Below are positions 15,396 to 35,019 of a stretch of 64,000 nt of DNA, in pieces; position 1 is the stretch's first letter; every line of letters begins with the position of its first letter. The translations under genes were made by a program, and so were the position numbers. This stretch comes from a virus (taxonomy: Duplodnaviria > Heunggongvirae > Uroviricota > Caudoviricetes), in IMG/VR virus record IMGVR_UViG_3300024270_000011; one strand, given 5' to 3'. The notes beneath the pieces are model-generated. The model worked only from the letters and a program-made list of their open reading frames with translations. It was not told the DNA's origin and made no database searches.

Positions 15396-15429
15396 ATGAC
15401 GAAAAAATCGCCCTTTTGGGGCGATTTTT

Positions 15430-17142: not shown

Positions 17143-17282
17143 AGTATCGTCTCCATTTCTCGCTATTGGTTGCGACCCTTTTTGAAGTTTCGTTCCTCTC
17201 TTGGAACATCTTAATTATACCACATGGGGTTTGATTTGTCAAGAGGTTTTCGAAAAAAATTCGCGACTTTTTTTCTTATCTT

Positions 17283-17466: not shown

Positions 17467-17524
17467 AATCATTATACCACACTTTGCGGTATTTGTCAAG
17501 ACCTTTTTTCAAGATTCTTGACTT

Positions 17525-17706: not shown

Positions 17707-17808
17707 TATTTATTATAGCACACTCGGCGCTATTTGTCAAGAGGTTTTTTAACTTTTTTCAAAGTTTTTTTGAGCTCCTCTTGGGTGCTCCCCTCACCTG
17801 ACATAGAT

Positions 17809-17960
17809 AGTATACCACATCCAGAAGCAGATTGCAATAGACAGAATGCACAAATTACAGGATTTTTATTTCTCGATCTTTGTGCACATTTTCTCTTGAC
17901 AAAAATGCCGGGGTATGGTATAATGGTAAATTCCGCGCGCTACGTTCGTGCGCGCGGCGC
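17809..17960. repeat. Back-to-back promoter cassette, copy 3 (both promoters intact)
   Basis: Plus TTGACA 17896, TATAAT 17919; hairpin CCGCGCGC/GTGCGCGG-like. Confidence 0.9.
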
Positions 17961-17987
17961 TGAAATCTCAAACAAAAAAGCGAGGGA

Positions 17988-18146
17988 TTAACCCTCGCAT
18001 TCCTCGTTGCGGTCTTCAATTCGTTCCTTGATTGCCTGGATGGTAGTACCAATCAACAGACCAAGCATCTGCACACACAGACAGCCAACAACACCAACGA
18101 GCACCCAACCGATGTGGTCAGGAATTTGACAAATAAGTTCTAACAT
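17988..18146 (-). CDS. 52-aa single-pass membrane peptide
   Basis: MLELICQIPDHIGWVLVGVVGCLCVQMLGLLIG...; own promoter and GAGG RBS; stop lies in the terminator loop. Confidence 0.65.
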   Translation of the reverse strand: MLELICQIPDHIGWVLVGVVGCLCVQMLGLLIGTTIQAIKERIEDRNEECEG

Positions 18147-18203
18147 AGTATCAACCTCTTTCCTTAATTTCTGTATTCATTATACCATGGGGGAGGGCTT
18201 TTG

Positions 18204-18941
18204 TCAAGCCCTTTCCCCACTATTTTTGAAAACTTTTTTCAAGTCCATTTCCTTGCGTGTTCTCTGGGGGATTCTCCAACACGCAGGGGAAATTTTAGTT
18301 TCAAGTTTTCTGTGCATTGCGTAACACTTTGCGAGAATTTCAACTTCAATTCTCACATCCTCAAGTCCTGTGTGGCTTTCCACAAAATCAACTTGCTTTT
18401 TCAGAAACTTGTAACAAGCCTCAGCACTTGTCTGAATGTTGTCGCTTTCGCTAATTAAACCATTCTGTAAAGCAAATTTTACATAGGAAACTTGATTGAG
18501 AACCACTTGACAAGCCATGTTCCAAATGCAAATGTAATCAGTTCCCCAAGGGAAGAACCAACGCCAGCGAGATTGAGAACAATAGCGAATTGTATTATTC
18601 AATGCTCTCTTGTCAAAACCCATGTTGTAAGCACCCACCTTGCGAATGGAATACTTTTTCATGTCCTCATGGATTTGCTTGCGAATGTTGAAAATGCTTT
18701 TCAAAGTGCGAGTGCCATTTTTAATGTCATCCCAATACTGGGGAATCTTTTCAGCAAAGTAGGCACTTTGCATCAAGTCTTTGTGGTCGAGGAACATTTC
18801 AGAAACCACAAAACTTCTTTCAAGGTAAATCTTGCCTTGTCTGTCACAGATTGCATAGCCAATGTCATAGCACAAAGGCTGTTCAATGGTGTTTGCTGTT
18901 TCAGTGTCGATGATTAAAAATAATTCTTTCTTGCGAGCCAT
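18204..18941 (-). CDS. DEDDh (DnaQ-like) 3'-5' exonuclease
   Basis: IIDTET (ExoI), AYNMGFD (ExoII), HTGLED (ExoIII). Confidence 0.9.
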   Translation of the reverse strand: MARKKELFLIIDTETANTIEQPLCYDIGYAICDRQGKIYLERSFVVSEMFLDHKDLMQSAYFAEKIPQYWDDIKNGTRTLKSIFNIRKQIHEDMKKYSIRKVGAYNMGFDKRALNNTIRYCSQSRWRWFFPWGTDYICIWNMACQVVLNQVSYVKFALQNGLISESDNIQTSAEACYKFLKKQVDFVESHTGLEDVRIEVEILAKCYAMHRKLETKISPACWRIPQRTRKEMDLKKVFKNSGERA

Positions 18942-19047
18942 GGGTATCAAATCCTTTCGTATCAACTGTAATTATTATAGCACTTTCATTTTGATTTGTC
19001 AATAGGTTTTTGAAAAATATTTTGCGCCCGGGCGAAAAGCTGACCCA

Positions 19048-19521
19048 TTAAAGGGTCTTGCTTTCGCTCACAAAATACTTCACTTCATACTGTGCGAGAA
19101 TGTCACGCACCTTTGCACTCTCTTTCTGTGTTGCACAGTAGAAATTGAAAAGGGTATATTTTCCAACATTTTCCACATAGTTGTGGGGAATGTCTTTCAA
19201 ATCAAAATGTACTGCGTCAGTCCATTCGTGGGGAACAGTTGCTTCAACTTTCCAAAGTTTGTCCTTGCGTGCCTTTTCTTCGCACCACTTAACAACATAC
19301 ACACCAACAAGGTTGCACAGAGCCACAATGCCAGCCTTTAAGTAAAGGTCAAGTTCACACATTAAGTAAACAGTGACAATTGTGTAAAGACCAAAAGCAA
19401 CAGCATTTACGATTGCGGCGACCCCTTTACCGCACTTCACAGTGGCGATACTTTTCACTGTCTGAATGATAACATTCAGAATGTTAAGAATGATAAATGT
19501 AATAAGTAACTGTGTATTCAT
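19048..19521 (-). CDS. Membrane protein, UPF0316/DUF2179-like
   Basis: Three N-terminal TM helices (NILNVIIQTVKSIATVK...) plus a small cytoplasmic ferredoxin/PII-like domain. Confidence 0.6.
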   Translation of the reverse strand: MNTQLLITFIILNILNVIIQTVKSIATVKCGKGVAAIVNAVAFGLYTIVTVYLMCELDLYLKAGIVALCNLVGVYVVKWCEEKARKDKLWKVEATVPHEWTDAVHFDLKDIPHNYVENVGKYTLFNFYCATQKESAKVRDILAQYEVKYFVSESKTL

Positions 19522-19564
19522 AGCGTTTACCTCTTTCGTTTCTTTCTGTAATTATTATAGCACA

Positions 19565-19810
19565 TCAATGCTCGTTTGTCAATACCTTTTTTTCACTTTT
19601 TATCATATTTTTTGTAAAAGCATCGGAGAACTCATCCCCATACTCATCGCTGACAAGATAGGCGAGGTATTCCATTACAGTGCTCACCCCATACATGAAA
19701 TGCTCATTGCCATTCTTTGCATCGTACCGACCGCAGAACAGACCGCATTCTGTCATTCCGTCAACTACCTTTTCGATTACTTTCTTTTCCTCTTGGTTCA
19801 GTTCTAACAT
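19565..19810 (-). CDS. Hypothetical protein
   Basis: 81 aa from ATG 19810, GGAGG RBS. Confidence 0.7.
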   Translation of the reverse strand: MLELNQEEKKVIEKVVDGMTECGLFCGRYDAKNGNEHFMYGVSTVMEYLAYLVSDEYGDEFSDAFTKNMIKSEKKVLTNEH

Positions 19811-19834
19811 CGTTCTATCCCTCCTGACATTATT

Positions 19835-20035
19835 AGTATACCACGTTTCGGGAGATTTTGCAATAGGCAATTTGCACAAATTTTCGCCCGCATTTTTGTT
19901 GAAATTAACTATTGACAGGAATACCGGCCCGCGCACTTGTGCACGGGCGGCCATTATACCACAGCCGGCCCGATTTGTCAAGTGGTAAAAATGCACAAAA
20001 ATTAGGGCGAAAGTTTGTGACTTTCGCCCATTGAC
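19835..20035. repeat. Back-to-back promoter cassettes, copies 4a and 4b (degenerate plus promoters)
   Basis: Two minus promoters, each with TGCACAAA 9-10 nt from -35; plus TTGACA without -10; GC hairpin between them. Confidence 0.75.
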
Positions 20036-20038
20036 AAG

Positions 20039-20425
20039 TTAGGAACGAGGGGCAGACAGTACCACCTTAAACTTTCGCCCATTGCAGTGGAAAAGCATTT
20101 CCCTCTCGGCGTTCGTAACCTCAATTCCCTCAATGCTTTCCAATCCCTCAAGGGCTTGCTTGATTTCGTCAATCAGCATTGCCTTGTCGTTGTCGGCTTT
20201 GCGTTCTCTCTTGGTTGTGGTCTTGGTTGTGGTGGTGGTCTTTGTTCCAATGGCTCTTGCCTTTTTGCTTGCCTTTTCTTGCTCGGCACTCAACTCAAAG
20301 AGTTTTGCTCCCTTGTCGATTGCTTCATCATCAGCGACCAACTGTTCGGCTTCCTCTCGGCTGATACCTAACAGACCCATGTGCTTGGCAATCAGTTTTT
20401 CTCTCTCGGATGCTGTCATAGGCAA
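20039..20425 (-). CDS. Hypothetical protein, paralog of 15430..15807
   Basis: Same position downstream of a wHTH copy. Confidence 0.8.
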   Translation of the reverse strand: MPMTASEREKLIAKHMGLLGISREEAEQLVADDEAIDKGAKLFELSAEQEKASKKARAIGTKTTTTTKTTTKRERKADNDKAMLIDEIKQALEGLESIEGIEVTNAEREMLFHCNGRKFKVVLSAPRS

Positions 20426-20507
20426 TCCCCCTTTCTGTAATTACATTATACCACACATCAAAGGGGTTGTCAAGGGGAAATTTGCATTTCCCCTTGACTT
20501 TTTTCCC

Positions 20508-20867
20508 TTAGTCAGCGAGGGAGAAATAAGCCTTACGCTTTTCCTCAGTTCGCACAACCACGCCATCAGTGACGAGCTGACGAACAAGAGCAGACACACG
20601 CTGGTTGCTCAGTTCGGCACAGGCAGGAATGGTCTTCATCAGGTCAGTGATGGTGTAGGACTTACCCTGCTCCATACCTGCGACAATGTCGCCCTTAATG
20701 CCCTCATTAGCCACCTGCACAGCGGTAGGCTTCTTCTCGGCACTGTTCTTCTTTGCGAGCAGTTCGAGTTCGTGGTCAATGAACTCAACCTCAGCCTCAG
20801 TCAGAGGGTAGGAAGCCTTAATCTGCTCGAACATCTCACGCTTAGTCATCTTCTTAGTGTTTGCCAT
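20508..20867 (-). CDS. 119-aa winged-helix protein, copy 3
   Basis: MANTKKMTKREMFEQIK start identical to copy 1. Confidence 0.85.
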   Translation of the reverse strand: MANTKKMTKREMFEQIKASYPLTEAEVEFIDHELELLAKKNSAEKKPTAVQVANEGIKGDIVAGMEQGKSYTITDLMKTIPACAELSNQRVSALVRQLVTDGVVVRTEEKRKAYFSLAD

Positions 20868-21220
20868 AGTATCAATCTCCAATCTCGTGGTAGGTCACGA
20901 CCCAAGTTTTTATTCTGTAAGAGGTGTCCCTCTTTACATTCTTATTATAGCACATTGGGAGTTGTTTGTCAAGAGGTTTTTTCAACTTTTTTTTTATTTT
21001 TTTTGTTGACCTCTCAGTAGGTTTTCCCTTACCTTGTATAACTATTATAGCATACTCTTTAGGATTTGTCAATACCTTTTTCAAAACTTTTTTAGAAATT
21101 TTTTGGTAATGGCTTTTTCCTTTTTTCTATAATAATTATAACATAATTTTTTTATTTTGTCAATAGGTTTTTTCAAAATCTTTTTGATGGGATTTTGTTC
21201 TCTCCCTTACTGACAATAAT

Positions 21221-21372
21221 AGTATACCACATCAGCCACCAAAATACAAGTGGCAAATTGCACAAAATTACAGGAAAATCTTTGTGCATTTTGCCTATTG
21301 ACAAATTGCTCGAAAAATGTTATAATGGAAGGTTAGGCCAAAACACCGGTCCGCGCGCACGTGGACCGGCCG
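21221..21372. repeat. Back-to-back promoter cassette, copy 5 (both promoters intact)
   Basis: Plus TTGACA 21298, TATAAT 21321; hairpin CCGGTCC/GGACCGG. Confidence 0.9.
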
Positions 21373-21424
21373 ATGCATTTTGGATTTTGAAATGGAAAAA
21401 GCGAGGGTTTCCCCTCGCTCTTCC

Positions 21425-21577
21425 TTATCGCGTTCTCTGCTTCGTTGTCAGCGAATAGGCAACCCCATTCTCAAAAATGACTTCGTCCTTTGTGATGGAC
21501 GCAACCACCATACCTTCGGGGTTGCTCATGTTTGCGCGAATCTCATTCAGTGCATTTGCTACTTCTCGAATACTCAT
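21425..21577 (-). CDS. 50-aa hypothetical protein
   Basis: MSIREVANALNEIRANMS...; own promoter and AGGAG RBS. Confidence 0.65.
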   Translation of the reverse strand: MSIREVANALNEIRANMSNPEGMVVASITKDEVIFENGVAYSLTTKQRTR

Positions 21578-21651
21578 AGTATCATTCTCCTTTTCTTTTG
21601 GTTTGTACTTGTATTATAGCATAGGTTTGGGGGTTTGTCAACCCCCATTTT

Positions 21652-21897
21652 TTACTTTTTTGCGCTTACGCTCTTGGGACTGTCATTGGTCAAGGGCATC
21701 TGCGGAGTGGGAGCTTGTGCTTTGGTGATGATTGCATCAACCTGCTCATAGAGTTTGTAAGCCTTGCTCGCCTTGCGATAGACTTTCTTCAACTCGGAGT
21801 AGGTAAGAGCATTGAACTGCTCGTCACTCATTGTGACCCCAACCTTTGCCAACTTGTTGCGGATAGATTTCAAACTCATTTCGGAAAACATTTTCAT
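21652..21897 (-). CDS. Basic hypothetical protein
   Basis: 81 aa, own promoter and RBS. Confidence 0.7.
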   Translation of the reverse strand: MKMFSEMSLKSIRNKLAKVGVTMSDEQFNALTYSELKKVYRKASKAYKLYEQVDAIITKAQAPTPQMPLTNDSPKSVSAKK

Positions 21898-21955
21898 AGT
21901 AACAACCTCTTTTCTTTATTTTCTATAATTATTATACCACATTTTTATTTAATTG

Positions 21956-22117
21956 TCAATAGTCTTTTTCAATTTTCTTGAACTTTTTTCTATTGTACGA
22001 GCCTTTGCCCTTTTTGTTCTCGACTACCGACCCACGCTTGCGAAAGTGCAAATACTGTTGCAGTTCTTCGCCCTCTTTCTTAAAAATGCGATTGTCAATG
22101 GTTTTCTTCTTTTTCAT
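21956..22117 (-). CDS. arfA: ArfA-like alternative ribosome-rescue factor (53 aa)
   Basis: Hand translation MKKKKTIDNRIFKKEGEELQQYLHFRKRGSVVENKKGKGSYNRKKFKKIEKDY carries the ArfA signature FRxR..NKKGKGSYxRK; own promoter (22161/22138) and GAGGTG RBS. Confidence 0.75.
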   Translation of the reverse strand: MKKKKTIDNRIFKKEGEELQQYLHFRKRGSVVENKKGKGSYNRKKFKKIEKDY

Positions 22118-22171
22118 TTATCTCACCTCTTGGTATTATTATAGCATACCTTTGGGGGTTTGTCAACCCCC

Positions 22172-22660
22172 TTAGGCAACTTTTTTCTTTCTGCCACGCT
22201 TAGGCACATAGTTTTTGTAGTCCTTGCCACACTTCTGCAAATTGTGGAGAGTGTCGAAAGTGACAATCTGTGCGCCGTTGAATTTGATTTGATACTCAAT
22301 GCCGTTCACATTGACATCACCACCAACCCAAAAGCCGTCATTATCCCAATCTCTTGCGACCTGACCGAAGTATCTCTGTACCCACATTTCAAAGTTTCTG
22401 CCGTTGTTGCCGTTGGTTACTTCGTAGTCGATTTCGATTGCGCCCTTGCGAATGAGCTGTTCCATGTGCTGATTAGTCAGTCGAAGCTGAAGCTTTTCCT
22501 TGCCACCCTTTTTGCTTGCTTCTTTTTCTACTCGAATGAAGCGAGGCATGATTTCATCAACGATTGCCATGTAGTTCTTCTTCTTGTAAGTGAAACCGAG
22601 GATGTAACCCTGTGCGCCACTAAACTTTCTGTAGTATCTGATTGCGTTTCCCTTAGTCAT
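22172..22660 (-). CDS. Putative PD-(D/E)xK-fold protein
   Basis: 162 aa from ATG 22660; NGRNFE...GGDV...YQIK pattern. Confidence 0.5.
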   Translation of the reverse strand: MTKGNAIRYYRKFSGAQGYILGFTYKKKNYMAIVDEIMPRFIRVEKEASKKGGKEKLQLRLTNQHMEQLIRKGAIEIDYEVTNGNNGRNFEMWVQRYFGQVARDWDNDGFWVGGDVNVNGIEYQIKFNGAQIVTFDTLHNLQKCGKDYKNYVPKRGRKKKVA

Positions 22661-22749
22661 TGTTCCTGTCTCCTTTTCTGTTCCGTTCTTTGTATCTTTA
22701 TTATAGCACCGCATTGACCGTTTGTCAAGCACTTTTTTTATTTTTTTTG

Positions 22750-22840
22750 AAAAAGATGAGGGGCTTTTAGGGGCGTCCCCCAAGGGGTTTGAACCCTTTC
22801 TGCTTGAGCGGCTCAGCATTAAACCTCACCCCTCATCTGT
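22750..22840 (-). ncRNA. tRNA-like small RNA with a T-arm
   Basis: AGATGAGGGG/CCCCTCATCT 10-bp terminal stem, TGCTGAG-CCG-CTCAAGCA arm, AAGGG-TTCAAAC-CCCTT T-arm, GGGG-ACG-CCCC arm, 3' T-tract; begins about 6 nt after a -10 box. Confidence 0.65.
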
Positions 22841-22846
22841 AAGTAC

Positions 22847-22998
22847 AGTATAACACACTCCCCAATAGAAGTCAATAGTCAAAATGCACAAATTTCAGGA
22901 ATTTGACCTCTCGCAACTTTGTGCAAATTGCCTATTGACAAAATGCTGAGGAAGTGTTATAATGGAAATTCGTGCCGCCTGGGTCGTGGGCGGCGCGC
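22847..22998. repeat. Back-to-back promoter cassette, copy 6 (both promoters intact)
   Basis: Plus TTGACA 22935, TATAAT 22958; hairpin GCCGCC/GGCGGC. Confidence 0.9.
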
Positions 22999-23014
22999 CA
23001 AAAAGGCGAGAGCG

Positions 23015-23233
23015 TCAAATTGCTCTCGCCCTGATTTGGGTGGGCTTGATGTCTGCGTGACCCTTGTAGGCGTAATACTCAACCCATTCATAGGTGTTGC
23101 CACAGTGGTCACAGCCACCGACCACGCTCATTGCGATTGTGCCTGTGTCGAGGTCTTCAACATCGTAGTGTGAGATAGAAATGAGGGAGCCGCCGCAAGT
23201 GGGGCAAGTGGGTTCATTCGTGTTAATCATCAT
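23015..23233 (-). CDS. Small zinc-ribbon protein
   Basis: CPTCGG...GCDHCG. Confidence 0.7.
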   Translation of the reverse strand: MMINTNEPTCPTCGGSLISISHYDVEDLDTGTIAMSVVGGCDHCGNTYEWVEYYAYKGHADIKPTQIRARAI

Positions 23234-23306
23234 GGGGTATCAGTTCCTTTCCTCTTGGTGTAATTAAATTATAGCACAACGGTTTGAAAATGTCAAGGGG
23301 AAATTC

Positions 23307-23756
23307 TCACATTTCTGCGAGAATTTCCAAGATGTTCTGCACATCATAAGCCTTGCCAGTCCAGTTTGTTCTGTTGCGTTCTTCATCATCGAAAAGCACA
23401 TCGAGAGGAGTTTTGCAGAAGTTCTGCTTTGGTGTGCCGTAAGGTACAATGTGGATTTCGTTCCAGTTGACACTTGGCAGATGTTTCTTGAGCCAATCCA
23501 TTTTGACTTCGGTAACTGCTCTGTTGTATTCTTCTGTGCCACTCTTGCTCAGCCAAGAGATAACTGCGATGTTGTAGCCATTTCTCTGGAGAGTGTTAAG
23601 TCTGCGAGCGAGAGTTGCAAGTCTAAGCAGAGGCTTTGCGTTTGCGTAAGGGAATGTGTCGCCTGCGATGAGGTATTCGAGCCAGTTTTCTACTCCATAG
23701 AGGTCAGCGATTGTGCCGTCCATGTCAAAGTTGATTGTGATGTTCATAGTCTTCAT
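23307..23756 (-). CDS. HAD-family phosphatase (5'(3')-deoxyribonucleotidase-like)
   Basis: FDMDGTIAD motif I, K, and LFDD motif IV. Confidence 0.85.
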   Translation of the reverse strand: MKTMNITINFDMDGTIADLYGVENWLEYLIAGDTFPYANAKPLLRLATLARRLNTLQRNGYNIAVISWLSKSGTEEYNRAVTEVKMDWLKKHLPSVNWNEIHIVPYGTPKQNFCKTPLDVLFDDEERNRTNWTGKAYDVQNILEILAEM

Positions 23757-23867
23757 TGTGTTTACTTCCTTTCCTTTTTTGTATCTTAATTATAGCATGG
23801 ATTTTCGTGTTTGTCAATAGGTTTTTGAAAAGTTTTTTATTTTTTTTGACCGGGGAAAGTGGGGGAC

Positions 23868-24542
23868 TTAGTCCACCCACTTCGGAAAGCACTTGTTGTA
23901 CTCTCTGCCCTTTGCGTCCCACTGGTGAATGTTCTTGTTGAATTTCTTGTGCATTTTCAGACAAGCCACAAAGATTTCCATTTCGATGAGTGCGTCAGCC
24001 AGTGCAGTGTGTTCTTCGATGTAGTCAGCATTTCCAGTGATGAAGCCATAGACAGTCTGTGCAGTAGTAGAGCAAGACTTCTTGGAAGAGGACTGGAAGC
24101 CATTCTCGTGGCAGAAGTTCGCAAAGCCTTTCTTGTGGCAGATGGTCTGCAAAGCCATCAAGTAAATGTCGATGAACTCAAACTCGTCGAGCAGTTCTCT
24201 GCAAATAGTCTTGGTAAAGTCGAAAGCAGAGTTGTAAGCCATTACATAGCGAACACCATAGAACTTGCAAAGGTTGCGAACGATGGAAAGTGCTTCGGCT
24301 TCGGTAGCCACCGCAGACATTTCGCCAGTCATCAGTCTTTCGCGATAGATAGGGAAGTTCTTCTTTGCGTAATCGTCCTGTGCGATTTCGTCATAGTGTT
24401 CCATTACAAGCAGAGAAGCGGTTGCGAAAATGTTGCCCTCTCTGTCGTGGATAGTGCAACCGAGGTTGTACATTCCAGTAGGATTAGAAGCTCCGCCAAC
24501 AGTTTCAGTATCAAGTGTGCAGTAAATAATTTTCTTGTTCAT
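23868..24542 (-). CDS. Second DEDDh 3'-5' exonuclease
   Basis: LDTET, AYNSAFD, HTALAD; paralog of 18204..18941. Confidence 0.9.
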   Translation of the reverse strand: MNKKIIYCTLDTETVGGASNPTGMYNLGCTIHDREGNIFATASLLVMEHYDEIAQDDYAKKNFPIYRERLMTGEMSAVATEAEALSIVRNLCKFYGVRYVMAYNSAFDFTKTICRELLDEFEFIDIYLMALQTICHKKGFANFCHENGFQSSSKKSCSTTAQTVYGFITGNADYIEEHTALADALIEMEIFVACLKMHKKFNKNIHQWDAKGREYNKCFPKWVD

Positions 24543-24649
24543 TGTTATCAATTCCTCTCTCAATTTCTGTATTTATTATAACATAGGTTCGTGGGTTTGT
24601 CAATAGGTTTTTCAAAACTTTTTTAATTTATTTTGTACGGGCGGTTGGC

Positions 24650-25063
24650 TCACATCGAGCCAACCATTGTAATCCCTCTGTCTTTCAACCATTCGCAGAA
24701 CTGTTCAGCAGGGAGCAAGTCCGCAAGGTCTTTCATTGTGTACATTCTTGTAACCTCTTCCCATTCCCACCTGACACGAATGGGCTTGAAAGTCTTTTCT
24801 GTCATTTTGCTTTTGTTTCTGTAGAAGTCGCCCCAACCAATTTCGATGGTCGGACGATTGCGAAATAGAGTGCAACCAGTTTCTGCATTTCTGATTCTGT
24901 GGTCACGAACTGCCGCAAATGCTTCTTCAAAGGTTTCGAGTGTGTATTCTGTCGTGTTACACTCGCCAACTTCCACATAGCGAATGTGATTCCAAATGGA
25001 AGTGTCGCAGTAGTCATCATTGCCGATTGCCGCATAGCATCTAAGGTTTACTAATTTCTTCAT
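24650..25063 (-). CDS. Hypothetical protein
   Basis: 137 aa, own promoter. Confidence 0.75.
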   Translation of the reverse strand: MKKLVNLRCYAAIGNDDYCDTSIWNHIRYVEVGECNTTEYTLETFEEAFAAVRDHRIRNAETGCTLFRNRPTIEIGWGDFYRNKSKMTEKTFKPIRVRWEWEEVTRMYTMKDLADLLPAEQFCEWLKDRGITMVGSM

Positions 25064-25121
25064 AGTATCAATTCCTCTCTCTTGGTTTCTGTAATTATTA
25101 TACCACGGCTTAGGGGTTTTG

Positions 25122-25445
25122 TCAACCCCTAATCGTAAATAATTCTGGATGTCTTTGACAATTTTTCATTACTCGCTTTTCCATTTTAGGTGACATCTGC
25201 CCCTTGCCCGCCATTCTGTAAAGACGATAGCACTGATTGACATTTGCCATAAATGCAGTTATCACAATGTCACGATACAAATTCTTAACAATGATAATTC
25301 CACTACTGGTTAGCAAGTACCTCTTTTCTTCTTCAATTACTTCAACTTCAAGCACAGGGTTTGTGAAGCCGAGAACTTCTTCCAATGCTTGCAGTCGGTT
25401 TGCTCGTTCCACTCCTGCGTGGAATGTAGTATTCATAGGTTTCAT
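25122..25445 (-). CDS. Hypothetical protein
   Basis: 107 aa from ATG 25445. Confidence 0.7.
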   Translation of the reverse strand: MKPMNTTFHAGVERANRLQALEEVLGFTNPVLEVEVIEEEKRYLLTSSGIIIVKNLYRDIVITAFMANVNQCYRLYRMAGKGQMSPKMEKRVMKNCQRHPELFTIRG

Positions 25446-25461
25446 CTTTAGTATCCCCCTT

Positions 25462-25644
25462 TCATGCTCTAAGTATACCATACTTTGAGATGTTTGTCAA
25501 TACCTTTTCGTACCATTTTTTGCGACTTACCAACTTAATGCCGAGAACCTCAGCAACCTTGTTGTAAGTCTGTTCGTCGATTGCGTTGCGTACTTCCTCA
25601 GGCTGTTCGCTCCAAGGTCTGTCAATAGTAATGTTCATCATCAT
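25462..25644 (-). CDS. Hypothetical protein
   Basis: 60 aa, GAGGGGG RBS. Confidence 0.65.
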   Translation of the reverse strand: MMMNITIDRPWSEQPEEVRNAIDEQTYNKVAEVLGIKLVSRKKWYEKVLTNISKYGILRA

Positions 25645-25674
25645 AGTTATTACCCCCTCATCTTTTGTACCTTA

Positions 25675-25795
25675 AGTATACACCATTTCGGGATGTTTGT
25701 CAAGCACAAAATTGCACAAATTTTCCACGAGATTTTTGTGCAGATTACCTCTTGGCAGAAACACCGCGCGCCACAGCCGACAGCGCGCGGCCGAA
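25675..25795. repeat. Back-to-back promoter cassette, copy 7 (plus TTGGCA, no -10)
   Basis: Boxes 9 nt from both -35-like hexamers; hairpin CCGCGCGC/GCGCGCGG. Confidence 0.8.
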
Positions 25796-25824
25796 AAAAT
25801 AAAAAGAGAGGGTTTCCCCTCTCC

Positions 25825-26034
25825 TTAATTGCTCTTGGAACTCGATTTGAAAAAGCCACCTACAAAACTGAGCAGAGCGCAGATGCCGAAAGCCTGCCAA
25901 AATGTTAGAGCAAACGCACAGCCGAACAGGCTCATCACCCAGTTAAACAGAAGCATCCCAATCCATGCCTCGAAACACACAACGCCGAACACCAGTGCCA
26001 GCGCGAGAATTACCATCAAACAACCTTCACCCAT
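25825..26034 (-). CDS. Small two-TM membrane protein
   Basis: 69 aa, hydrophobic with basic tail. Confidence 0.75.
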   Translation of the reverse strand: MGEGCLMVILALALVFGVVCFEAWIGMLLFNWVMSLFGCAFALTFWQAFGICALLSFVGGFFKSSSKSN

Positions 26035-26106
26035 TGTATCTATCTCCTTTTCTTTTCTTTGTATTATTATTATACCATAATTTTAATTGATTGTCAAGGG
26101 GAATTT

Positions 26107-26439
26107 TTACATTCCCCTCATTGTTGTTATTGCTTCCATTACCCACTCTTGAAAGTGAGATTTAATAAATTCTACTGTATCAAGATCAGCGCAATTAAAA
26201 TAATCTTTGCGAATGCGCCGAGCCTTTTGTGTTTTTAGAATTTTCATTCGCAAAAAACTTTCTACAAATAGCCTTTCGCATTCTCCGCCGCCAATGTCTA
26301 ATGATTGAAGAATTAAATAATCTTCTTGGAGCAACTGATTACTTCTACGCCTTGCATTAGTCGTTTCCCCAATTTTGATTGCCGTTCTAATTTCTAAATG
26401 TTCTGCGTAATACACTTCTGAATAACATCCGTAAGCCAT
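26107..26439 (-). CDS. GIY-YIG/T5orf172-like protein
   Basis: IKIGETTNARRRSNQL motif; more AT-rich than its neighbours. Confidence 0.55.
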   Translation of the reverse strand: MAYGCYSEVYYAEHLEIRTAIKIGETTNARRRSNQLLQEDYLILQSLDIGGGECERLFVESFLRMKILKTQKARRIRKDYFNCADLDTVEFIKSHFQEWVMEAITTMRGM

Positions 26440-26518
26440 TTTTACCACTTCTTTCTGTTTCTTTCTGTAATTATTATAGCACAAGGGGTTGAGTTTGTCA
26501 ACCCCTTTTTGCATTTTT

Positions 26519-26944
26519 TTACTTTACTTCAACAATCAGTTTGTAAGCTCGGCAAGAGCCAAAACCATAGCGATTGTAAGTAGTTTCTTCCCACCTTACA
26601 GACAGACAATGCTGAGCAAGATACTCTTCAATGAAAGTCTTGTGATAGTTCTTGTCAGTGCAAGGAGAATAACTCCAATCTCCATTTGCATACTTCTTGC
26701 CATCGAAACGAATAGGACGCAGTACCTCGTTGCCGTAAGCATCGGAAGCCATAGCGAGGTCAATAGAAGTTGAAATCAGTCCACCCTTAGGGTTGAGAGC
26801 CTGCTTCTCAAGGGCAGGTCCAATCTCAGTTTCACAGAATTCAACACTCGCACCCAACAGACGAGCAAGACTTTCTGCCTTTTCTTTTTCCCACTTCATT
26901 ACGCTTGCATTTCTCACAATTGCCAGTTCACTTGCACACATCAT
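26519..26944 (-). CDS. Hypothetical protein
   Basis: 141 aa from ATG 26944, AAGGAG RBS. Confidence 0.7.
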   Translation of the reverse strand: MMCASELAIVRNASVMKWEKEKAESLARLLGASVEFCETEIGPALEKQALNPKGGLISTSIDLAMASDAYGNEVLRPIRFDGKKYANGDWSYSPCTDKNYHKTFIEEYLAQHCLSVRWEETTYNRYGFGSCRAYKLIVEVK

Positions 26945-27032
26945 AGTTATCAGTCTCCTTTTGTTTTCCTTTTTTGTATCTTTATTATAACATGGAGGGG
27001 GCTTTTTGTCAAGCCCCTTTTTTAATTTTTTT

Positions 27033-27287
27033 TTAGCAATCATAAGTGTAACATCCTTCGTAAGGGTCAAAGCCAAAATCGTCATCAATGTCAGCAGGCT
27101 CTTCGTAGTCCTCTTCCTCAGGGTCGTAGAAGGCTACTACTTCGCCAGTTTCATCCCACACAAGGGAAGCAGTCTGGCAAGTCATCTCTGCGATGGTCTT
27201 AGCTGCTTCGTAGCAAGCATAGCAAGCTTCAGTACCACTAATAGTAGCGATAGCGTTGTTGTTAATGTAGATAGTATAAGTGTTCAT
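27033..27287 (-). CDS. Small protein with acidic C-terminus ending GFDPYEGCYTYDC
   Basis: 84 aa from ATG 27287; own promoter. Confidence 0.7.
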   Translation of the reverse strand: MNTYTIYINNNAIATISGTEACYACYEAAKTIAEMTCQTASLVWDETGEVVAFYDPEEEDYEEPADIDDDFGFDPYEGCYTYDC

Positions 27288-27320
27288 AGGTTGTACCTCT
27301 CTCTCTTTCTTTGTATCTAT

Positions 27321-27458
27321 AGTATACCATGCGCGCAGGTATTTTGTCAAGGGTTTTGGGAGATTTATTTTACACAAATTTACGCCGATTTTGCAAGCCT
27401 TTTTTGTGCAGGTTTTACAATAGCACCAATCAGGCGCGCCAGGACCGTGCGCGCGCCT
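27321..27458. repeat. Back-to-back promoter cassette, copy 8 (degenerate)
   Basis: TATACT promoter, TACACAAA/TTTGTGCA, GGCGCGC/GCGCGCC hairpin. Confidence 0.6.
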
Positions 27459-27517
27459 ATGGCGGTCTTTCTGTATTAGTGTAGTATTAGTAGTAGTGTG
27501 TAGTAGCACACACTGCA

Positions 27518-27808
27518 TTAGTGTGTGCTTACTCCTACTACCTCATCATCATAGATGTATCCATCAGTGTGTGCTGTGTACATGTGTACATCTACCACTG
27601 TGCCTACGCTTGGTGCTGTGCCCTCTACCTCATAGCACCACACATGTCCTTGCTTGTCCTCTACCTCTGCAAGCTGTCCTTCTGTGTGTACTACTACGCA
27701 GTCCTTGCGTGTGTAGTGTGTCTCTACGTAGCCGCACAGCCCCAGCATGCCCATGAACACTACTACTACCAACAGTATAGTCATCATCTCTGTTACTCTC
27801 TTACTCAT
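27518..27808 (-). CDS. N-terminally membrane-anchored small protein
   Basis: 96 aa, TILLVVVVFMGMLGLC segment. Confidence 0.7.
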   Translation of the reverse strand: MSKRVTEMMTILLVVVVFMGMLGLCGYVETHYTRKDCVVVHTEGQLAEVEDKQGHVWCYEVEGTAPSVGTVVDVHMYTAHTDGYIYDDEVVGVSTH

Positions 27809-27965
27809 TGTATCTACCTCTTTCTTTACTTCTTTCTTTGTATCTTTATTATACCATTACAGGAGGTTTGTGTCAAGCTTTTTTTACACGTTTGTGCAGA
27901 CTTTTTTCTGTGCCTCCTGGCTCTGTGGCAGTTAGGGATAGCAGGGCCGCACACGGTAGCTACCC

Positions 27966-28301
27966 TTACAGAGTAGCTATTACCTTAGCCAGTGCCTCAG
28001 TATCCATTGCCTCATAGTGTGTCATGATAGTAGCAAGCATAGCCTTTCTCTCTGCTTCTCTCTGTCTCTTAGCTGCTTGTGCTTCTTTGTACTGTGCTAC
28101 CTCTGTTGCGTCGTAGCTGTAGCTCTTCTCTCCGTACATGTATGCTGTGCGCACTGTGCCATCCTCTTGGTGTACGTTGATAGTCTTGCTTGTGTGGTAA
28201 AGCATAGGTCTTGCTTCAGCAGGTGCGCATTCCTTAGTATAGTAGGTGTGTCTGTGTGTCTCATTGTTTCTTACTACGTAGATTGTGCTGATGTGTTTCA
28301 T
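27966..28301 (-). CDS. Hypothetical protein; first gene of the minus-strand array
   Basis: 111 aa from ATG 28301, GAGG RBS, own promoter; contains no Phe. Confidence 0.7.
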   Translation of the reverse strand: MKHISTIYVVRNNETHRHTYYTKECAPAEARPMLYHTSKTINVHQEDGTVRTAYMYGEKSYSYDATEVAQYKEAQAAKRQREAERKAMLATIMTHYEAMDTEALAKVIATL

Positions 28302-28335
28302 TGTGTGTACCTCTCTCTTCCTTTGTTGTACCCTT

Positions 28336-28452
28336 AGTATAACACGTTTCGGGAGGTTTGTCAATAGGTAGATTTGCACAATTGTTGCGCCCTTTATTTG
28401 TGCAAGATGTATACCATGCCAACCAGGGCCGCGCCATCCATGCACGGCCCAG
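28336..28452. repeat. Back-to-back promoter cassette, copy 9
   Basis: TATACT promoter, TGCACAA/TTTGTGCA, GGGCCG/CGGCCC hairpin. Confidence 0.75.
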
Positions 28453-28654
28453 CGTATGTATTAGTATGTACATCATTGTGTTGTTTATTATTTATTATTA
28501 TTATCTATTGTTGTATGTATAGATAGATGTGTATGTGTTATGTACTCATTACCTCTTGGTCATTGTGTATGTATCTCTTTGTATGTACATGTGCGTAGCT
28601 CTGTAGGGCGTAGAGAGGGGCGTACCTCTCTGTCTGTGTGTGTGCCTGTGCTGT

Positions 28655-28705
28655 GTATGCCAACATACCCGGGGGGGTGTATTTCGGGAAAATTTTTTTT
28701 TATTG
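28655..28705. other. Putative genome terminus / packaging (cos- or repeat-junction-like) site
   Basis: CATACCCGGGGGGGTGTATTTCGGGAAAATTTTTTTT at an abrupt compositional boundary, immediately upstream of the early promoter array. Confidence 0.4.
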
Positions 28706-28817
28706 TTGATGAAATGTTATTTCCTGGACAAACCTCCCACTAAATCAATTTCAGATTTCGGTTTACGGGAAAAATAAGAAATGGGTCCCATACCGAATGG
28801 TACGGAACCCAATCTTT

Positions 28818-29156
28818 CTAAACTCTTTCTACGGCGACTCCAAAAATATTGTTTCGCCCAATAGTGCCATTAATGTGTCCATGGTTGTTTCCAATCGTAT
28901 ACCGATTTCCATTCTTAATAGCTACTATCTTGTGCAGGTAGTAATGCCCACCCACTCTACATAGAACAATATCATTCTTATGCAATTTCGTATCCTCGGT
29001 TACAGGAATACAAATAACACTATCTCCACTCTCCAAAATGGGAGTCATGCTTTGTCCATACCCAGTTACCAAACAACTGCGACCCTCACGCAATTTCTGC
29101 GCGGTAATCGCATTTTCTTTTCCATGAAATAGTTCTGCTAAATTGCGCCCTGCCAT
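28818..29156 (-). CDS. S24/S26-family peptidase-like protein
   Basis: GQSMTPILESGD (catalytic Ser) and YLHKI (Lys). Confidence 0.8.
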   Translation of the reverse strand: MAGRNLAELFHGKENAITAQKLREGRSCLVTGYGQSMTPILESGDSVICIPVTEDTKLHKNDIVLCRVGGHYYLHKIVAIKNGNRYTIGNNHGHINGTIGRNNIFGVAVERV

Positions 29157-29158
29157 AA

Positions 29159-29422
29159 TTAGTCCTCCAACCCAACCTTGATTGCGAGTTCAGCTGGAAC
29201 AGCAATATTCAATTCTTGGAGCAATTCTGCGGCAAGGCGATATTTATCAGCTTCAATGCGGGCTGAGCGCAAACAAATGTACTCGCATCCGCCGCTTTCC
29301 ATTGTGAACAATTCCATGTCATCATTTTCATGGAGTCCCATTCGGTCACGCAAGCCCTTAGGAATCGTGACACGTCCGAGCGCATCAATTTTTCTTGTTG
29401 TGTTTTCTGGTCTAATTCTCAT
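29159..29422 (-). CDS. abrB: AbrB/SpoVT-family transcription regulator
   Basis: TTRKIDALGRVTIPKGLRDRMGL swapped-hairpin signature. Confidence 0.85.
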   Translation of the reverse strand: MRIRPENTTRKIDALGRVTIPKGLRDRMGLHENDDMELFTMESGGCEYICLRSARIEADKYRLAAELLQELNIAVPAELAIKVGLED

Positions 29423-29424
29423 TT

Positions 29425-30282
29425 TTATTCTCCTAATTTAATTGGAATTTGCGCCTCGTCAAGCCGAGGATTTTCAAACAACAGCTTGGCTACCGCCATA
29501 TTTTCCAAGAGTGCGCATCTGGTTAAAAGACCAACTCCACCCGGAACTGGGGTTACCAGTCTATTCTCGGTATTAATACAGTCTCCAACCATTTTACCTT
29601 CTTCATTAAAATTAATACCTACATCAATAACCGGTACGTAGATCGGATAGCAGTTCAGGAATCCGGCCTTACCCACCGCGCAAATTATCAAGTCTGCGCT
29701 ATCAATAAAGGTATGCAAATTCTTTGTTTTACTATGGCACAATGTAACTGTGCAATTCAAATCTACCAACATTTCTGCGACGGGTTTCCCTACAATCTCA
29801 GAACGTCCAATTACTACCGCATTTGCCCCCTCAAAATTGAAATTGCATGCTTTCAGATATGTGATAATACCAAGAGGAGTGCAAGGGAAATAAGGACTAT
29901 CATTCTTAAATCCATCTACATCCATGCGGCTTGGGATAAGTCTTGTAATTCTATTTTTATCCAAATGAATTGGTAATGGCAACTGCACAATAATGCCAGC
30001 TGGATTTTCAGCATTAGTCTGAACAATTTGAATAATGGATTGTTCGACAGTCTCTTGGGTTACTGATTCTGGAAAATGAATAACCTGCGCTTCGATGCCC
30101 ACTTCCTGTGCGTCCTTCACTTTATTGCGAACATAGCGTGTTGATGCGGGATTGTCACCAACTTGAATAATATGAAGGATTGCGCGCTGCCCGCTCAGCC
30201 GATCTTTAAGACTGGCTTTCCAATCGGCACAAAACTCTTTAATATTTTTTAGTTCAAAATTAGTATTTGTTGAAGAAATCAT
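29425..30282 (-). CDS. folD: Bifunctional methylenetetrahydrofolate dehydrogenase/cyclohydrolase
   Basis: YVRNK, DVDG, PCTP, GRSEIVGKP, IDVGIN, TPVPGGVG. Confidence 0.95.
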   Translation of the reverse strand: MISSTNTNFELKNIKEFCADWKASLKDRLSGQRAILHIIQVGDNPASTRYVRNKVKDAQEVGIEAQVIHFPESVTQETVEQSIIQIVQTNAENPAGIIVQLPLPIHLDKNRITRLIPSRMDVDGFKNDSPYFPCTPLGIITYLKACNFNFEGANAVVIGRSEIVGKPVAEMLVDLNCTVTLCHSKTKNLHTFIDSADLIICAVGKAGFLNCYPIYVPVIDVGINFNEEGKMVGDCINTENRLVTPVPGGVGLLTRCALLENMAVAKLLFENPRLDEAQIPIKLGE

Positions 30283-30493
30283 CGTCGTCTCCTCCCCAAC
30301 CAGGTGGCATAATGCAATTTAATAATTCTTCAAGAATATTAGATATTGCAAAAAATGGCCCTCCGATTAAAAATATGACCATAACTGTAAATTTATCTGC
30401 GCTGCTAAGCTCTTTGCATGCAGGCATATGTGGAATAAATGTAATTGTGGAAATAACTCCCCACAAGATTATTGCAATCCAAGTTCCCGCCAA
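30260..30493 (-). CDS. Small membrane protein
   Basis: 77 aa, two hydrophobic segments. Confidence 0.65.
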   Translation of the reverse strand: MAGTWIAIILWGVISTITFIPHMPACKELSSADKFTVMVIFLIGGPFFAISNILEELLNCIMPPGWGGDDDDFFNKY

Positions 30494-30816
30494 AAGTATC
30501 TCCCCTCCAACTCAATAACTTGTGCTTTATGTATTTCCCTTGGGACTCCGTCCCAAGGAGATTCTTCTGCGCTCGGCGCCCTCTTGTGGCAAATAACCAA
30601 TTGCATTTTTGCATTTAAATGCTCATAGTGATTTTCACAATAAAATAATTCACTATGTTCTGTTTGATTAAAATGTTCAACAAGGGTTAAAGAACCAATC
30701 CACTTGTCATCGTAAAACTCTTGACCTTTATTTTTACTTACCGCAATACAACAATATATAATTCCAACCAAGAGTGAAAGAAGGAAGAATGCGAGGATAT
30801 AAAGTAATACTTTCAT
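30469..30816 (-). CDS. Membrane-anchored hypothetical protein
   Basis: 115 aa, N-terminal TM helix. Confidence 0.65.
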   Translation of the reverse strand: MKVLLYILAFFLLSLLVGIIYCCIAVSKNKGQEFYDDKWIGSLTLVEHFNQTEHSELFYCENHYEHLNAKMQLVICHKRAPSAEESPWDGVPREIHKAQVIELEGRYFWRELGLQ

Positions 30817-30848
30817 ATCTCCAATATCCTTTCCTCATATTTACTAAT

Positions 30849-30926
30849 ATTATACCAAAAAATTTTTAATTTGTCAACATTCGGTTTCCAGTGCGGGTTG
30901 ACTTTTCGAAAATTTTCTGGTATAAT
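30849..30926. promoter_or_regulatory. Divergent sigmaA promoter pair at the strand switch
   Basis: Minus TTGACA 30872-77 with TATAAT 30849-54; plus TTGACT 30898 with TATAAT 30921. Confidence 0.85.
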
Positions 30927-32050: not shown

Positions 32051-33280
32051 ATGGCAGATAACCGTACGTTCTACTGCGAAAAATGTAATAGAACGATGAG
32101 TGCAGAACAATTTTATGGTTCAAATAATTTAGAAAAATATCCAGAAGGAAAATTGAAACAATGCAAGAAATGTATTTCAATGCATGTTGACAATTTTAAC
32201 CCTGATACATATTTATGGATTCTGCAGGAATGCGATGTACCTTATGTTCAAGATGAATGGAATAAGCTACTTGCGTCCTACGGAAAAGACAAATCTAAAT
32301 TAACTGGCATGACAATTCTTGGTAGATACTTATCTAAGATGAAGTTAAAACAGTGGCGAGATTATCGTTGGGAACACACTGATTATCTACAAGAAGTCGC
32401 TAACAAAAAAATTGAAGAAACTATGAAGCGTCAAGGCTATGACGCAATACAAATTAATGAAGCTGTTACGAAGGCGACTTTTACAATCCCGGATGAGATT
32501 TTAAAAGAACCTGAGTACACTCCTTATACTGGACCGACTGGTTATTTTGAAGAAGATGATTACTTCGCACAGCAGTCCGGAGAGGATACTTCTTTTGATG
32601 ATGATTTAACAGAAGAAGATAGAACATACTTGCGATTAAAGTGGGGCAAAACCTATAAACCAGAAGAATGGATTAAGTTGGAACAGTTGTATGAAGAAAT
32701 GATGAGTTCTTACGATATTCAAACTGCGGGACATATTGATACATTGAAATTAGTTTGTAAAACATCTTTGAAAGCTAATCAGCTCTTGGATATTGGTGAT
32801 GTTGATGGTGCTCAGAAGATGATTAAAATGTATGACGGACTTATGAAGTCTGGTAAGTTTACTGCGGCTCAGAATAAAGCAGAATCTGGTGAGTATGTAG
32901 ACTCCATTTCCGAACTTGTGGCAATTTGCGAAAAGGATGGGTTCATCCCTCGTTATTATACAGACGGGCCACAGGATAAGGTTGATAGAACATTACAAGA
33001 TTTACAAAGTTACACTTATAATCTGGTAACTGAGGAAATGAACCTTGGTAACTTGATTGAAAGTGCTATTAAACAGATTGAAGAAGAAAAACAAAGAGAG
33101 GCCGATGGCGCATCTGAGGCAGCTGATGAGGAAGAACTCATGGAAGCCGCACTATTTGAGGATGGTGCTACTAAGGTTCTCACAGATAGTGATTTCGAAG
33201 AATTTAGAGAATTTGAAGAGGATGTCGAAGAATACGACACCGCTTACATTGAAAAACTCTTGAATGGAGAGGAAGACTAA
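32051..33280 (+). CDS. Probable terminase small subunit with N-terminal zinc finger
   Basis: CEKC...CKKC; stop overlaps the large terminase start; SPbeta-like position. Confidence 0.6.
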   Translation: MADNRTFYCEKCNRTMSAEQFYGSNNLEKYPEGKLKQCKKCISMHVDNFNPDTYLWILQECDVPYVQDEWNKLLASYGKDKSKLTGMTILGRYLSKMKLKQWRDYRWEHTDYLQEVANKKIEETMKRQGYDAIQINEAVTKATFTIPDEILKEPEYTPYTGPTGYFEEDDYFAQQSGEDTSFDDDLTEEDRTYLRLKWGKTYKPEEWIKLEQLYEEMMSSYDIQTAGHIDTLKLVCKTSLKANQLLDIGDVDGAQKMIKMYDGLMKSGKFTAAQNKAESGEYVDSISELVAICEKDGFIPRYYTDGPQDKVDRTLQDLQSYTYNLVTEEMNLGNLIESAIKQIEEEKQREADGASEAADEEELMEAALFEDGATKVLTDSDFEEFREFEEDVEEYDTAYIEKLLNGEED

Positions 33281-35019
33281 TGGCTCTTCAAGACCTATTA
33301 GACCTCTCTACCAAGAGAAAGAAAATTGGACTATCTGAAGAGCGTATCGAAGCTATTAAGCCTGCGGTGCGCCAATATATTGCCTATTGGCGCGAATATC
33401 CAGACATGTTCATTGATTTTCTCCAAGATGGCGGAGACCCTACAAAGGAAAGGAAATTAAAGTTTTTCTTCTATCAACGAGTATTTTTGCGTGCGGCTAT
33501 GCGTTACAAATATGTATACATGGTGTTCCCTCGTGCGTATTCAAAATCATTCTTATCTGTTATGGTACTGATGTGCCGTTGTATCTTATATCCACGTAGT
33601 AAATTATTCGTTACTTCTGGTGGTAAAGAGCAGGCTGCAGGTATCGTAAAAGAAAAAGTTACAGAAATTTGCACGCTGGTTCCGGCCTTTGACCGAGAAC
33701 TTGACCGCCGACCGGGTAAGACGCGTGAAGGTAAGGACTATGTTTGTTATGTATTCAAAAATGGCTCTTATTTCGATAATATTGCGGCGTCCGAGAAGTC
33801 GAGAGGTAAGCGTCGACATGGCGGTCTCGTAGAGGAGTGCGTTGGTGTTGACGGCGATATTCTTTCTCAGGTTATTATTCCTACCATGAACGTTTCTCGT
33901 TTGTGTATGGATGGCACAACTCAACCTGATGAGACTTTGAATAAGTCGCAGATTTATGTAACTACTGCCGGATTTAAAAACACATTTGCATATGATAAAT
34001 TGATACAGCTCTTGGTTTGGATGATTACTGAGCCTCACAAGGCAATGGTAATGGGCGGAACTTGGAGAATTCCTGTTTTAATGAAGTTGCTGGATAAAAA
34101 CTTCCTGCAAGACCTGAAAAAGGACGGAACCTTCAATGAAGCTTCTTTCGACCGTGAGTATGAATCAAAATGGACTGGTACTGTAGCTGACGCTTTCTTC
34201 AATGGAGAAATCTTTGATAGAAACCGCAACTTACAGAAACCTGAATTGGAACATTCTGGACGCTCAAGTGCGCAGGCTTTCTATGTATTGTCTGTTGACG
34301 TTGGTCGTAAGGGATGTGATTCTGTAGTATGTGTATTTAAAGTAACCCCACAATCAATGGGTGCGGCATACAAATCATTGGTAAATATTTATACATTCTC
34401 TGATGAACACTTTGAAGACCAAGCGATTCGTATCAAGAAACTGTTCTACAAGTATAAAGCTCGTAGAGTCGTAATCGACGCCAATGGTCTTGGTATTGGT
34501 TTGGTCGACTATATGATTAAATCTCAGATTGACCCAAATACAGGAGATACGTATCCTGACTTTGGTGTTTATAATGATGATGAGTTATACTATAAAAAGT
34601 ATAAGACCAACATTACCGAACAAGATGCTATGTATTTGATTAAAGCAAATGCGCCAATCAATACAGAAGCACATGCAAATGCGCAAGCTCAGTTATCTTC
34701 TGGTAAAGTTAAACTTCTTATTGACGAGCGTGTTGCTAAGACTAAGTTGCTTGGCACCAAGGTTGGTCAGAATATGAAACCTGAGGAAAGGGCAGAATAT
34801 TTAAAACCATTTACCCTAACTTCCATATTAAAAGAGGAAATGATGAACTTACGAGAAGAAAATGAAGGCGTAAACATTATTTTGAAACAAGCGAACAAAG
34901 GTATCCGCAAGGATAAATTCTCCGCTTTTGAATATGGATTATACTATATTAAACAAGTAGAAGAAAATAAGAAACGTAAAAAGAAATTCAATGCTAAAGA
35001 CTGGTGCTTTATGAATTAA
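33280..35019 (+). CDS. terL: Terminase large subunit
   Basis: FPRAYSKS Walker A variant, RGKRRHGGLVEE Walker B, LSVDVGR nuclease motif. Confidence 0.92.
   Translation: MALQDLLDLSTKRKKIGLSEERIEAIKPAVRQYIAYWREYPDMFIDFLQDGGDPTKERKLKFFFYQRVFLRAAMRYKYVYMVFPRAYSKSFLSVMVLMCRCILYPRSKLFVTSGGKEQAAGIVKEKVTEICTLVPAFDRELDRRPGKTREGKDYVCYVFKNGSYFDNIAASEKSRGKRRHGGLVEECVGVDGDILSQVIIPTMNVSRLCMDGTTQPDETLNKSQIYVTTAGFKNTFAYDKLIQLLVWMITEPHKAMVMGGTWRIPVLMKLLDKNFLQDLKKDGTFNEASFDREYESKWTGTVADAFFNGEIFDRNRNLQKPELEHSGRSSAQAFYVLSVDVGRKGCDSVVCVFKVTPQSMGAAYKSLVNIYTFSDEHFEDQAIRIKKLFYKYKARRVVIDANGLGIGLVDYMIKSQIDPNTGDTYPDFGVYNDDELYYKKYKTNITEQDAMYLIKANAPINTEAHANAQAQLSSGKVKLLIDERVAKTKLLGTKVGQNMKPEERAEYLKPFTLTSILKEEMMNLREENEGVNIILKQANKGIRKDKFSAFEYGLYYIKQVEENKKRKKKFNAKDWCFMN

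Follow-up and report, generated by a model that had tools for sequence, protein, structure and literature searches.

Why should one strand of about 1.2 kb of phage DNA be nearly free of the dinucleotides AA and GA, and its complement correspondingly of TT and TC? The question is raised by a segment, here termed the desert, which occupies positions 27430-28661 of the window, i.e., of the whole 64,000-nt stretch of DNA analyzed in this work. The underlying genome of 192 kb belongs to an SPbeta/Kirov-like siphophage from animal faeces whose virus record is 98% complete. It encodes a tape measure protein of 3085 residues as well as a YonF-type large terminase and a portal protein, and its kin include Kirov, phiCD211 and the Enterococcus and Lactococcus 949-like phages.

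For the description of the desert, comparisons were made in 1.2-kb windows across the genome. An earlier note on this DNA had counted 13 AA on the plus strand of 27481-28680, and this number was reproduced. Composition predicts 40.0 (observed/expected 0.33), and among 2000 shuffles with a mean of 39.8 and a standard deviation of 5.2 the lowest count was 19. No other window of the genome is as poor in AA (z -6.3; next lowest 0.70). AAAA is absent, as had been stated, and AAA occurs once. The dinucleotide GA, which the note had overlooked, is depleted to the same extent (17 versus 48 expected) and likewise reaches its genome minimum here. CG (0.43), GG (0.59) and TT (0.65) are low as well, TA and GT are high and CT is enriched, so that the depleted steps are overall AA/TT, GA/TC, CG and GG/CC; the most strongly depleted words of the plus strand are AAA and GAA. 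With 643 distinct 6-mers the stretch has the fewest in the genome, all other windows containing 688 or more. The edges are sharp for AA: its density per 100 nt falls from 7.6 on the left of 27430 to 1.0 in 27430-28661 and rises to 10.2 from 28662 onward. Scarcity of GA sets in earlier, at about 26870. Of the 13 remaining AA, which the note had assigned in part to obligatory promoter elements, three indeed lie in -35 or -10 elements (27875, 28341, 28363) and two more (28380, 28404) belong to boxes found upstream of a promoter. The one-strand depletion is thus confirmed. Since 13 AA stand against 106 TT on the plus strand, a directional or single-strand process is needed, and this stretch of DNA is probably read by a direction-sensitive process.

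The depletion is not a consequence of what the genes encode. Synonymous resampling gave 14.7 and 20.3 sense-strand TT for the two desert genes, each of which contains three, and the z values for TT/TC avoidance beyond the demand of the proteins are -4.4 and -4.9; the next gene inward is unaffected (19 versus 20.3). Both proteins together contain one Phe in 207 codons, as the note had reported. Its statement that genes and intergenic DNA share the bias also holds, because the 240-nt non-coding stretch 28422-28661 is free of AA where 8.1 would be expected. An artefact of composition or codon usage is therefore ruled out by the shuffles and the resampling. An assembly artefact was rejected as well, as deep sequencing runs, which may be the source of the record, cross the stretch without differences.

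The supposition that the segment lies at a physical genome end was borne out. A conserved motif composed of a G-run, a TTTCGGGA box and an A/T tract follows the desert directly, and nearly all relatives have it upstream of the terminase, at a distance of 2.6-7 kb. A G-run, with T-rich sequence after it, is located 52-53 nt from the right ends of Kirov, phiCD211 and Sundance, whose ends are mapped (those of Kirov by RAGE, in which genomic ends are rapidly amplified; PMC10454425), and from the record end of PJN02. Contigs from two independent low-depth runs both stop at 28724. From this spacing and the two contig stops the right physical end of the virion DNA is predicted at about 28724, adjoining the desert. 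The terminal repeat measures 284-404 bp in cultured kin, and by analogy the AA-free stretch 28422-28661 would fall largely within a repeat of 280-400 bp. That the right end enters the host first is plausible, as the promoters here are of host type and point inward, and as phiCD211 carries, close to the same end, a gene annotated as anti-restriction. The same G-run lies 252 nt from the mapped start of PMBT24 (L092:252-305), which was published as pac-type (PMC11035940), and predicts that the terminal repeat spans about 305 bp; a tract rich in G and poor in C stops exactly at this start. The G-run rule predicts physical ends for hundreds of uncultured genomes.

At its inner edge the desert is bordered by a GC palindrome with GGCGCGCC arms. 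Across lineages the palindrome lies about 760-1580 nt from the end, and the edge of the desert shifts with it. It is present in 16 of the 23 lineages with a desert and in nine of the 29 without (p 0.011). In 20 lineages picked for having both elements, 8-16 AA plus GA per 100 nt are counted on the inner side of the palindrome and 2-6 on the side of the desert; other promoter or cassette borders remain at about 13. In three lineages with a weak desert (L120, L136, L112) purging is restricted to the 200-300 nt beside the palindrome, which argues that the palindrome, and not the end, is the anchor of the tract. Five of eight stem pairs covary in a structure that was derived from the same sequences, and the palindrome folds on either strand. 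On the minus strand it is followed by a weak U-tract in many lineages. About seven relatives carry an outward promoter just before it (among them L016, L135, L152, L150, L155 and L109); none was found upstream of the palindrome in this genome.

The bias is kept in diverged relatives, as the note had proposed to examine. In a table of 69 rows, in which the DNA left of the end motif is largely non-homologous between lineages, the same-strand AA/GA desert is strong in 30, weak in 12 and absent from 27. On the tree of the sigma factor this amounts to at least 8-10 gains or losses. Between close relatives 16 AA/GA-changing single-nucleotide polymorphisms (SNPs), which are not fully independent, were counted inside deserts versus 34.8 expected, and 99 versus 102.8 outside; TT and TC on the plus strand show no purging in this comparison. 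The clade-wide family of gene B, the inner one of the two desert genes, keeps close to the end, at distances of up to about 1.4 kb. For its members the TT count per 100 nt is 0.4-1.5 in most deserts, 3.5-4.4 in those of L007, L130, L133 and L174, and 4-16 outside deserts or in desert-free lineages, even at equal distance from the end. The SNP deficit and this contrast show ongoing, strand-specific selection tied to the place. Four deserts of 570-960 nt are free of genes (L109, L140, L146, L031). Those of L109 and L140 consist of simple repeats over 800-950 nt and are placed upstream of all strong inward promoters, the first of which lies 1288 nt from the end in L109, where an outward promoter adjoins the palindrome, and 1152 nt in L140. 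The relatives use the standard, TAG- or TGA-recoded genetic code, and mixed codes are likewise described for the Agate clade of recoded gut phages (10.1101/2021.08.26.457843). A strong desert occurs in six of seven standard-code relatives, the seventh being weak, versus four of 18 TAG/TGA-recoded ones (G001-G024), a difference confounded by kinship.

We tentatively read the palindrome together with the one-strand desert extending toward the terminal repeat as a single DNA-level module for end processing, a proposal to which we would give somewhat less than even confidence. The position at the end, the fixed strand polarity, the anchoring on the palindrome, the ongoing selection and the independence from coding are supported directly. 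What these features serve is, in all three leading models, what we infer from them. Genome ends would be processed by duplication of the terminal repeat or by replication that restarts at the concatemer junction, in the manner of the T7 hairpin site. The palindrome might be nicked or extruded during this step, and unwinding or strand-displacement synthesis would then proceed from the palindrome to the end, leaving one strand briefly single-stranded. TT and TC on the minus strand (AA and GA on the plus strand) may be short words on which a strand-reading enzyme such as a terminase, nuclease or primase would act wrongly, and genes that land in the tract would adapt their codons and residues to the dinucleotide rule. 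The end box TTTCGGGAAA is made up of exactly the depleted steps, a coincidence of about 1 in 210 that was noticed post hoc. TT/TC-poor tracts at the same position in Kirov and PMBT24 agree with this reading. We rank end processing first on account of the tract's anchoring on the palindrome, its independence of genes and a geometry like that of the T7 junction. Several observations weigh against it: the palindrome pattern is missing in seven of the 23 desert lineages and present in nine of the 29 desert-free ones; the lineages of the border comparison were chosen for carrying both elements, and GC-rich hairpins inherently lack AA and GA. Sister lineages with an identical end motif can be desert-free, and such a patchy distribution is odd for core packaging. 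In addition, the tracts of Kirov and PMBT24 have the opposite polarity, and no such tract was found beside the end in phiCD211, Sundance, E3 and c-st.

Two other models deserve consideration, though we regard each of them as rather unlikely. If the DNA between the end and the palindrome were the first to enter and were exposed alone, words recognized by host defence in one orientation would be purged from it, and the palindrome could act as an injection pause like the T5 stop region. Conceivable targets are asymmetric sites of the m6A type (type III, ISP, IIG, BREX) or clostridial CRISPR protospacer-adjacent motifs (PAMs) of TT/TC type, in keeping with known PAM lists and the orientation rule of type III enzymes. 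The patchy distribution suits such a host-dependent pressure. Leading-region motifs decide type I restriction (PMC12455610), and the first-step-transfer region of T5 provides a precedent (PMC10644984). Non-palindromic REBASE sites are low only in plus orientation (116 versus 196 +/- 28 in GC-matched windows; minus orientation 207 versus 213), but early-region windows elsewhere go down to 106 plus-orientation hits, so that this signal is modest. Palindromic sites are kept, with 53 kinds and 164 hits in the desert versus 57 and 142 for the genome, and GTAC, CATG and ACGT reach 3-4 times the genome average although they are avoided elsewhere in the genome. Thus the depletion of host restriction sites expected of a T5-type region was not found beyond asymmetric sites in one orientation. 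Moreover, the outermost 200-800 nt are unpurged in many lineages, and gene-free leaders would supply no anti-defence product. In favour of a defence-driven origin, no methyltransferase of the N6/N4, C5 or D12 type was detected in this phage, the search in 24 relatives yielding one C5 hit, and CTAG and GATC are avoided genome-wide (0 and only 43 sites in 192 kb of G000). Avoidance of type II palindromes was rejected because palindromic sites are undiminished, although residual RA-N-TY words are extra rare. Dodging of the phage's own methylation was dismissed for want of a methyltransferase of the types searched, and a DarT-type TYTN/TNTC motif because its depletion is no stronger than that of plain TT/TC.

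The other model, which we likewise consider improbable, takes up the note's idea of transcription without pausing: from the end onward, host RNA polymerase would follow the minus strand without pausing or terminating until it reaches the palindrome, which would serve as terminator, and would possibly pull the DNA in. Here as well as in Kirov and PJN02, local genes have the TT/TC-poor strand as their sense strand, and the polarity fits all gene-bearing cases. RNA polymerase of C. difficile pauses at T-rich sequence (PMC13174505), Rho of B. subtilis requires high T and an excess of C (10.1101/2025.08.25.672197), and the maximum %T of the desert (0.24) is the lowest of the early region. The purine share of the desert transcript (0.61) lies within the range of the early units, however, as do T and C, CT is enriched and the C excess of 1.3 is not reduced, so that the Rho rule does not single out the desert. 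Only the two outermost of 35 promoter units are purged, and the other 33 keep 3-13 TT per 100 nt. Depletion is not limited to transcribed DNA either: the deserts of L109 and L140 and the local stretch 28422-28661 lie outside strong inward sigma-A promoters, although promoters of other types may exist there. The note's suggestion of an RNA-level cause, namely UU pausing or U-specific RNases, is weakened by these observations and by the gene-free deserts; it keeps the weak U-tract behind the palindrome in its favour, but an effect on mRNA alone is insufficient. Given T-dependent pausing in clostridia and the U-tract, a transcript model is possible if an unrecognised promoter exists. Very improbable, and largely refuted, is an origin without selection by local mutational bias or expansion of simple repeats near the end. 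The gene-free deserts are built of short repeats and the 6-mer diversity is low, but the SNP deficit is confined to AA/GA inside deserts, plus-strand TT/TC are unpurged, and homologs of gene B at equal distance from the end are TT-poor only in deserts.

Further candidates were tested and discarded. Bending or stiffness of the duplex cannot be strand-specific, and T-tracts persist on the plus strand. An unfoldable single strand was rejected as folding of either strand equals or exceeds that of shuffles and the stacking energy shifts by only about 1%. Avoidance of UV dimers fails as the template strand is not the one that is purged. Concerning a replication origin, the GC-skew minimum at 30882 is the switch in gene strand, and DnaA boxes show no clear enrichment. 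Desert length did not correlate with tape-measure length, as a proxy of tail length, in seven genomes. A search of the stretch against Rfam yielded no known RNA, and none of the RNA runs gave useful coverage of it.

Table 1. Position of the desert and of the elements within and around it.
Feature	Position	Strand	Remarks
Inner flank, GA low but AA not	26870..27429	+	contains third early gene 27033-27286 (normal TT) and promoter 27350-27321
AA/GA (also CG, GG) desert	27430..28661	+	equals TT/TC-poor minus strand with its 5' end at the genome end
GC palindrome, GGCGCGCC arms	27433..27457		conserved; unique in genome; inner desert edge
Gene B, 96 aa	27518..27808	-	N-terminal hydrophobic helix and small beta-barrel; codons purged of TT/TC
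Promoter of gene B, consensus sigma-A (12/12, extended -10), inward	27848..27876	-	
Gene A, 111 aa	27966..28301	-	codons purged of TT/TC
Outermost consensus sigma-A promoter (11/12)	28336..28364	-	TTTCGGGA box in spacer at 28347-28354 (+)
Non-coding, AA-free stretch of 240 nt outside first promoter	28422..28661	+	0 AA versus 8.1
Second GC hairpin, upstream of outermost promoter	28427..28449		sequence
End motif: G-run, TTTCGGGA box, A/T tract	28671..28701	+	conserved; G-run at 28671-28677
Predicted right physical end of virion DNA	28724		two contig ends and G-run spacing
Intrinsic terminator of FolD-AbrB-S24 operon, far side of junction	28782..28811	-	sequence
Large terminase, SPbeta YonF/Kirov/phiCD211 type	33280..35019	+	used for placing the phage and finding relatives

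Structure comparison of gene B, a membrane anchor with a small barrel, gave weak OB-fold-like matches only and a weak match to a Kirov lipoprotein, with no significant match in the PDB; gene A has no family match and its predicted fold is unreliable. About 35 near-consensus sigma-A promoters at 14105-30849, roughly one per small minus-strand gene, drive these genes leftwards from the desert, a series resembling a host-takeover array. The TTTCGGGA box recurs at 15278, 19846, 25686, 28347 and 28682 and in four early promoters occupies part of the spacer between -35 and -10, TTGCACA-type inverted boxes being often present upstream; it is possibly a shared operator or a terminase-binding site. A candidate for the small terminase is encoded at 32051-33280. 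Among the early cassettes, a small T5orf172-like (GIY-YIG-related) gene at 26107-26439 scores below the Pfam cut-off. Beyond the junction an operon at 28818-30282, coding for FolD, an AbrB/MazE-type regulator and a stand-alone S24 peptidase, points to the left end. Outside the window, an open reading frame (ORF) cluster at C1 ~129500-136600 of G000, one member of which has a CxxxCxxC radical-SAM-like motif, is accompanied by a TC-poor, strongly alternating stretch, and a similar composition recurs near C1 33000-38000. In relatives, a degenerate TATAC microsatellite of about 580 nt without AA and TT lies beside the palindrome (L005:5220-5800), and TTGTGAA-N4-TTCACAA and TTGTTAA-N4-TTAACAA palindromes, which resemble boxes of the NADH sensor Rex, are repeated near the end (L109 ~5010-5240, L120 ~1780-2600, L022 ~4780).

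Selection that strips Phe, Ile and Leu codons and yet equally hits gene-free DNA, on one strand, points to a new reader of phage DNA ends. It is conceivable, though we hold this with less than even confidence, that gut phages of a large family share an exchangeable end module, consisting of a GC palindrome and 0.3-1.2 kb of a TT/TC-purged strand, which is read at dinucleotide resolution by a strand-reading enzyme of phage end processing or of host defence. If it belongs to the phage machinery, it would offer a handle on the poorly understood duplication of short terminal repeats outside T7; if it belongs to the host, it would represent a defence of clostridia whose oriented target is very short. 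Direct tests are made possible by the gene-free versions and by natural pairs of which one member has the tract. We found no description of such a tract in the literature, nor of the skewed tracts of Kirov and PMBT24.

Among known systems, the concatemer junction of T7 and T3 comprises an outward promoter, the hairpin 'M' palindrome left of the repeat, a short-repeat tract and a short terminal repeat. The present locus likewise would have a short terminal repeat, to one side of which lie both the palindrome and a low-complexity tract; just before the palindrome an outward promoter occurs in several relatives. Unlike T7, however, the phage is a siphophage with host-type promoters and, in this genome, without the outward promoter; the palindrome lies 0.85-1.6 kb from the end versus about 0.35 kb, and a dinucleotide rule reshaping proteins is not described for T7. 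Duplication of the terminal repeat is required in T7 (PMC5923468). With the first-step-transfer region of T5 (PMC10644984, PMC12455610) the locus has in common the end-proximal early DNA, inward host promoters, a sequence constraint and an inverted-repeat boundary. It differs in its length of about 1 kb versus 10 kb, its restriction to one strand and its undiminished palindromic restriction sites; genes needed before entry of the remaining DNA, as in T5, are lacking in the four gene-free deserts. The purine bias by which Bacillota avoid Rho (PMC13323073) likewise leaves the sense strand without TT and TC, and codon choice follows; the desert is confined to one end module, extends to apparently untranscribed DNA, acts on dinucleotides and has an ordinary purine content. 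A further comparison is with the SPbeta-like siphophages with short direct terminal repeats, i.e., Kirov (PMC10454425), phiCD211, Sundance and PMBT24 (PMC11035940), which share the terminase family, the layout and the G-run 52-53 nt from the right end. Kirov and PMBT24 also have a skewed tract beside the repeat, but the tracts of these kin are opposite in polarity or absent. The desert is real, selected and family-wide, and represents a variant of the special sequence found at phage ends.
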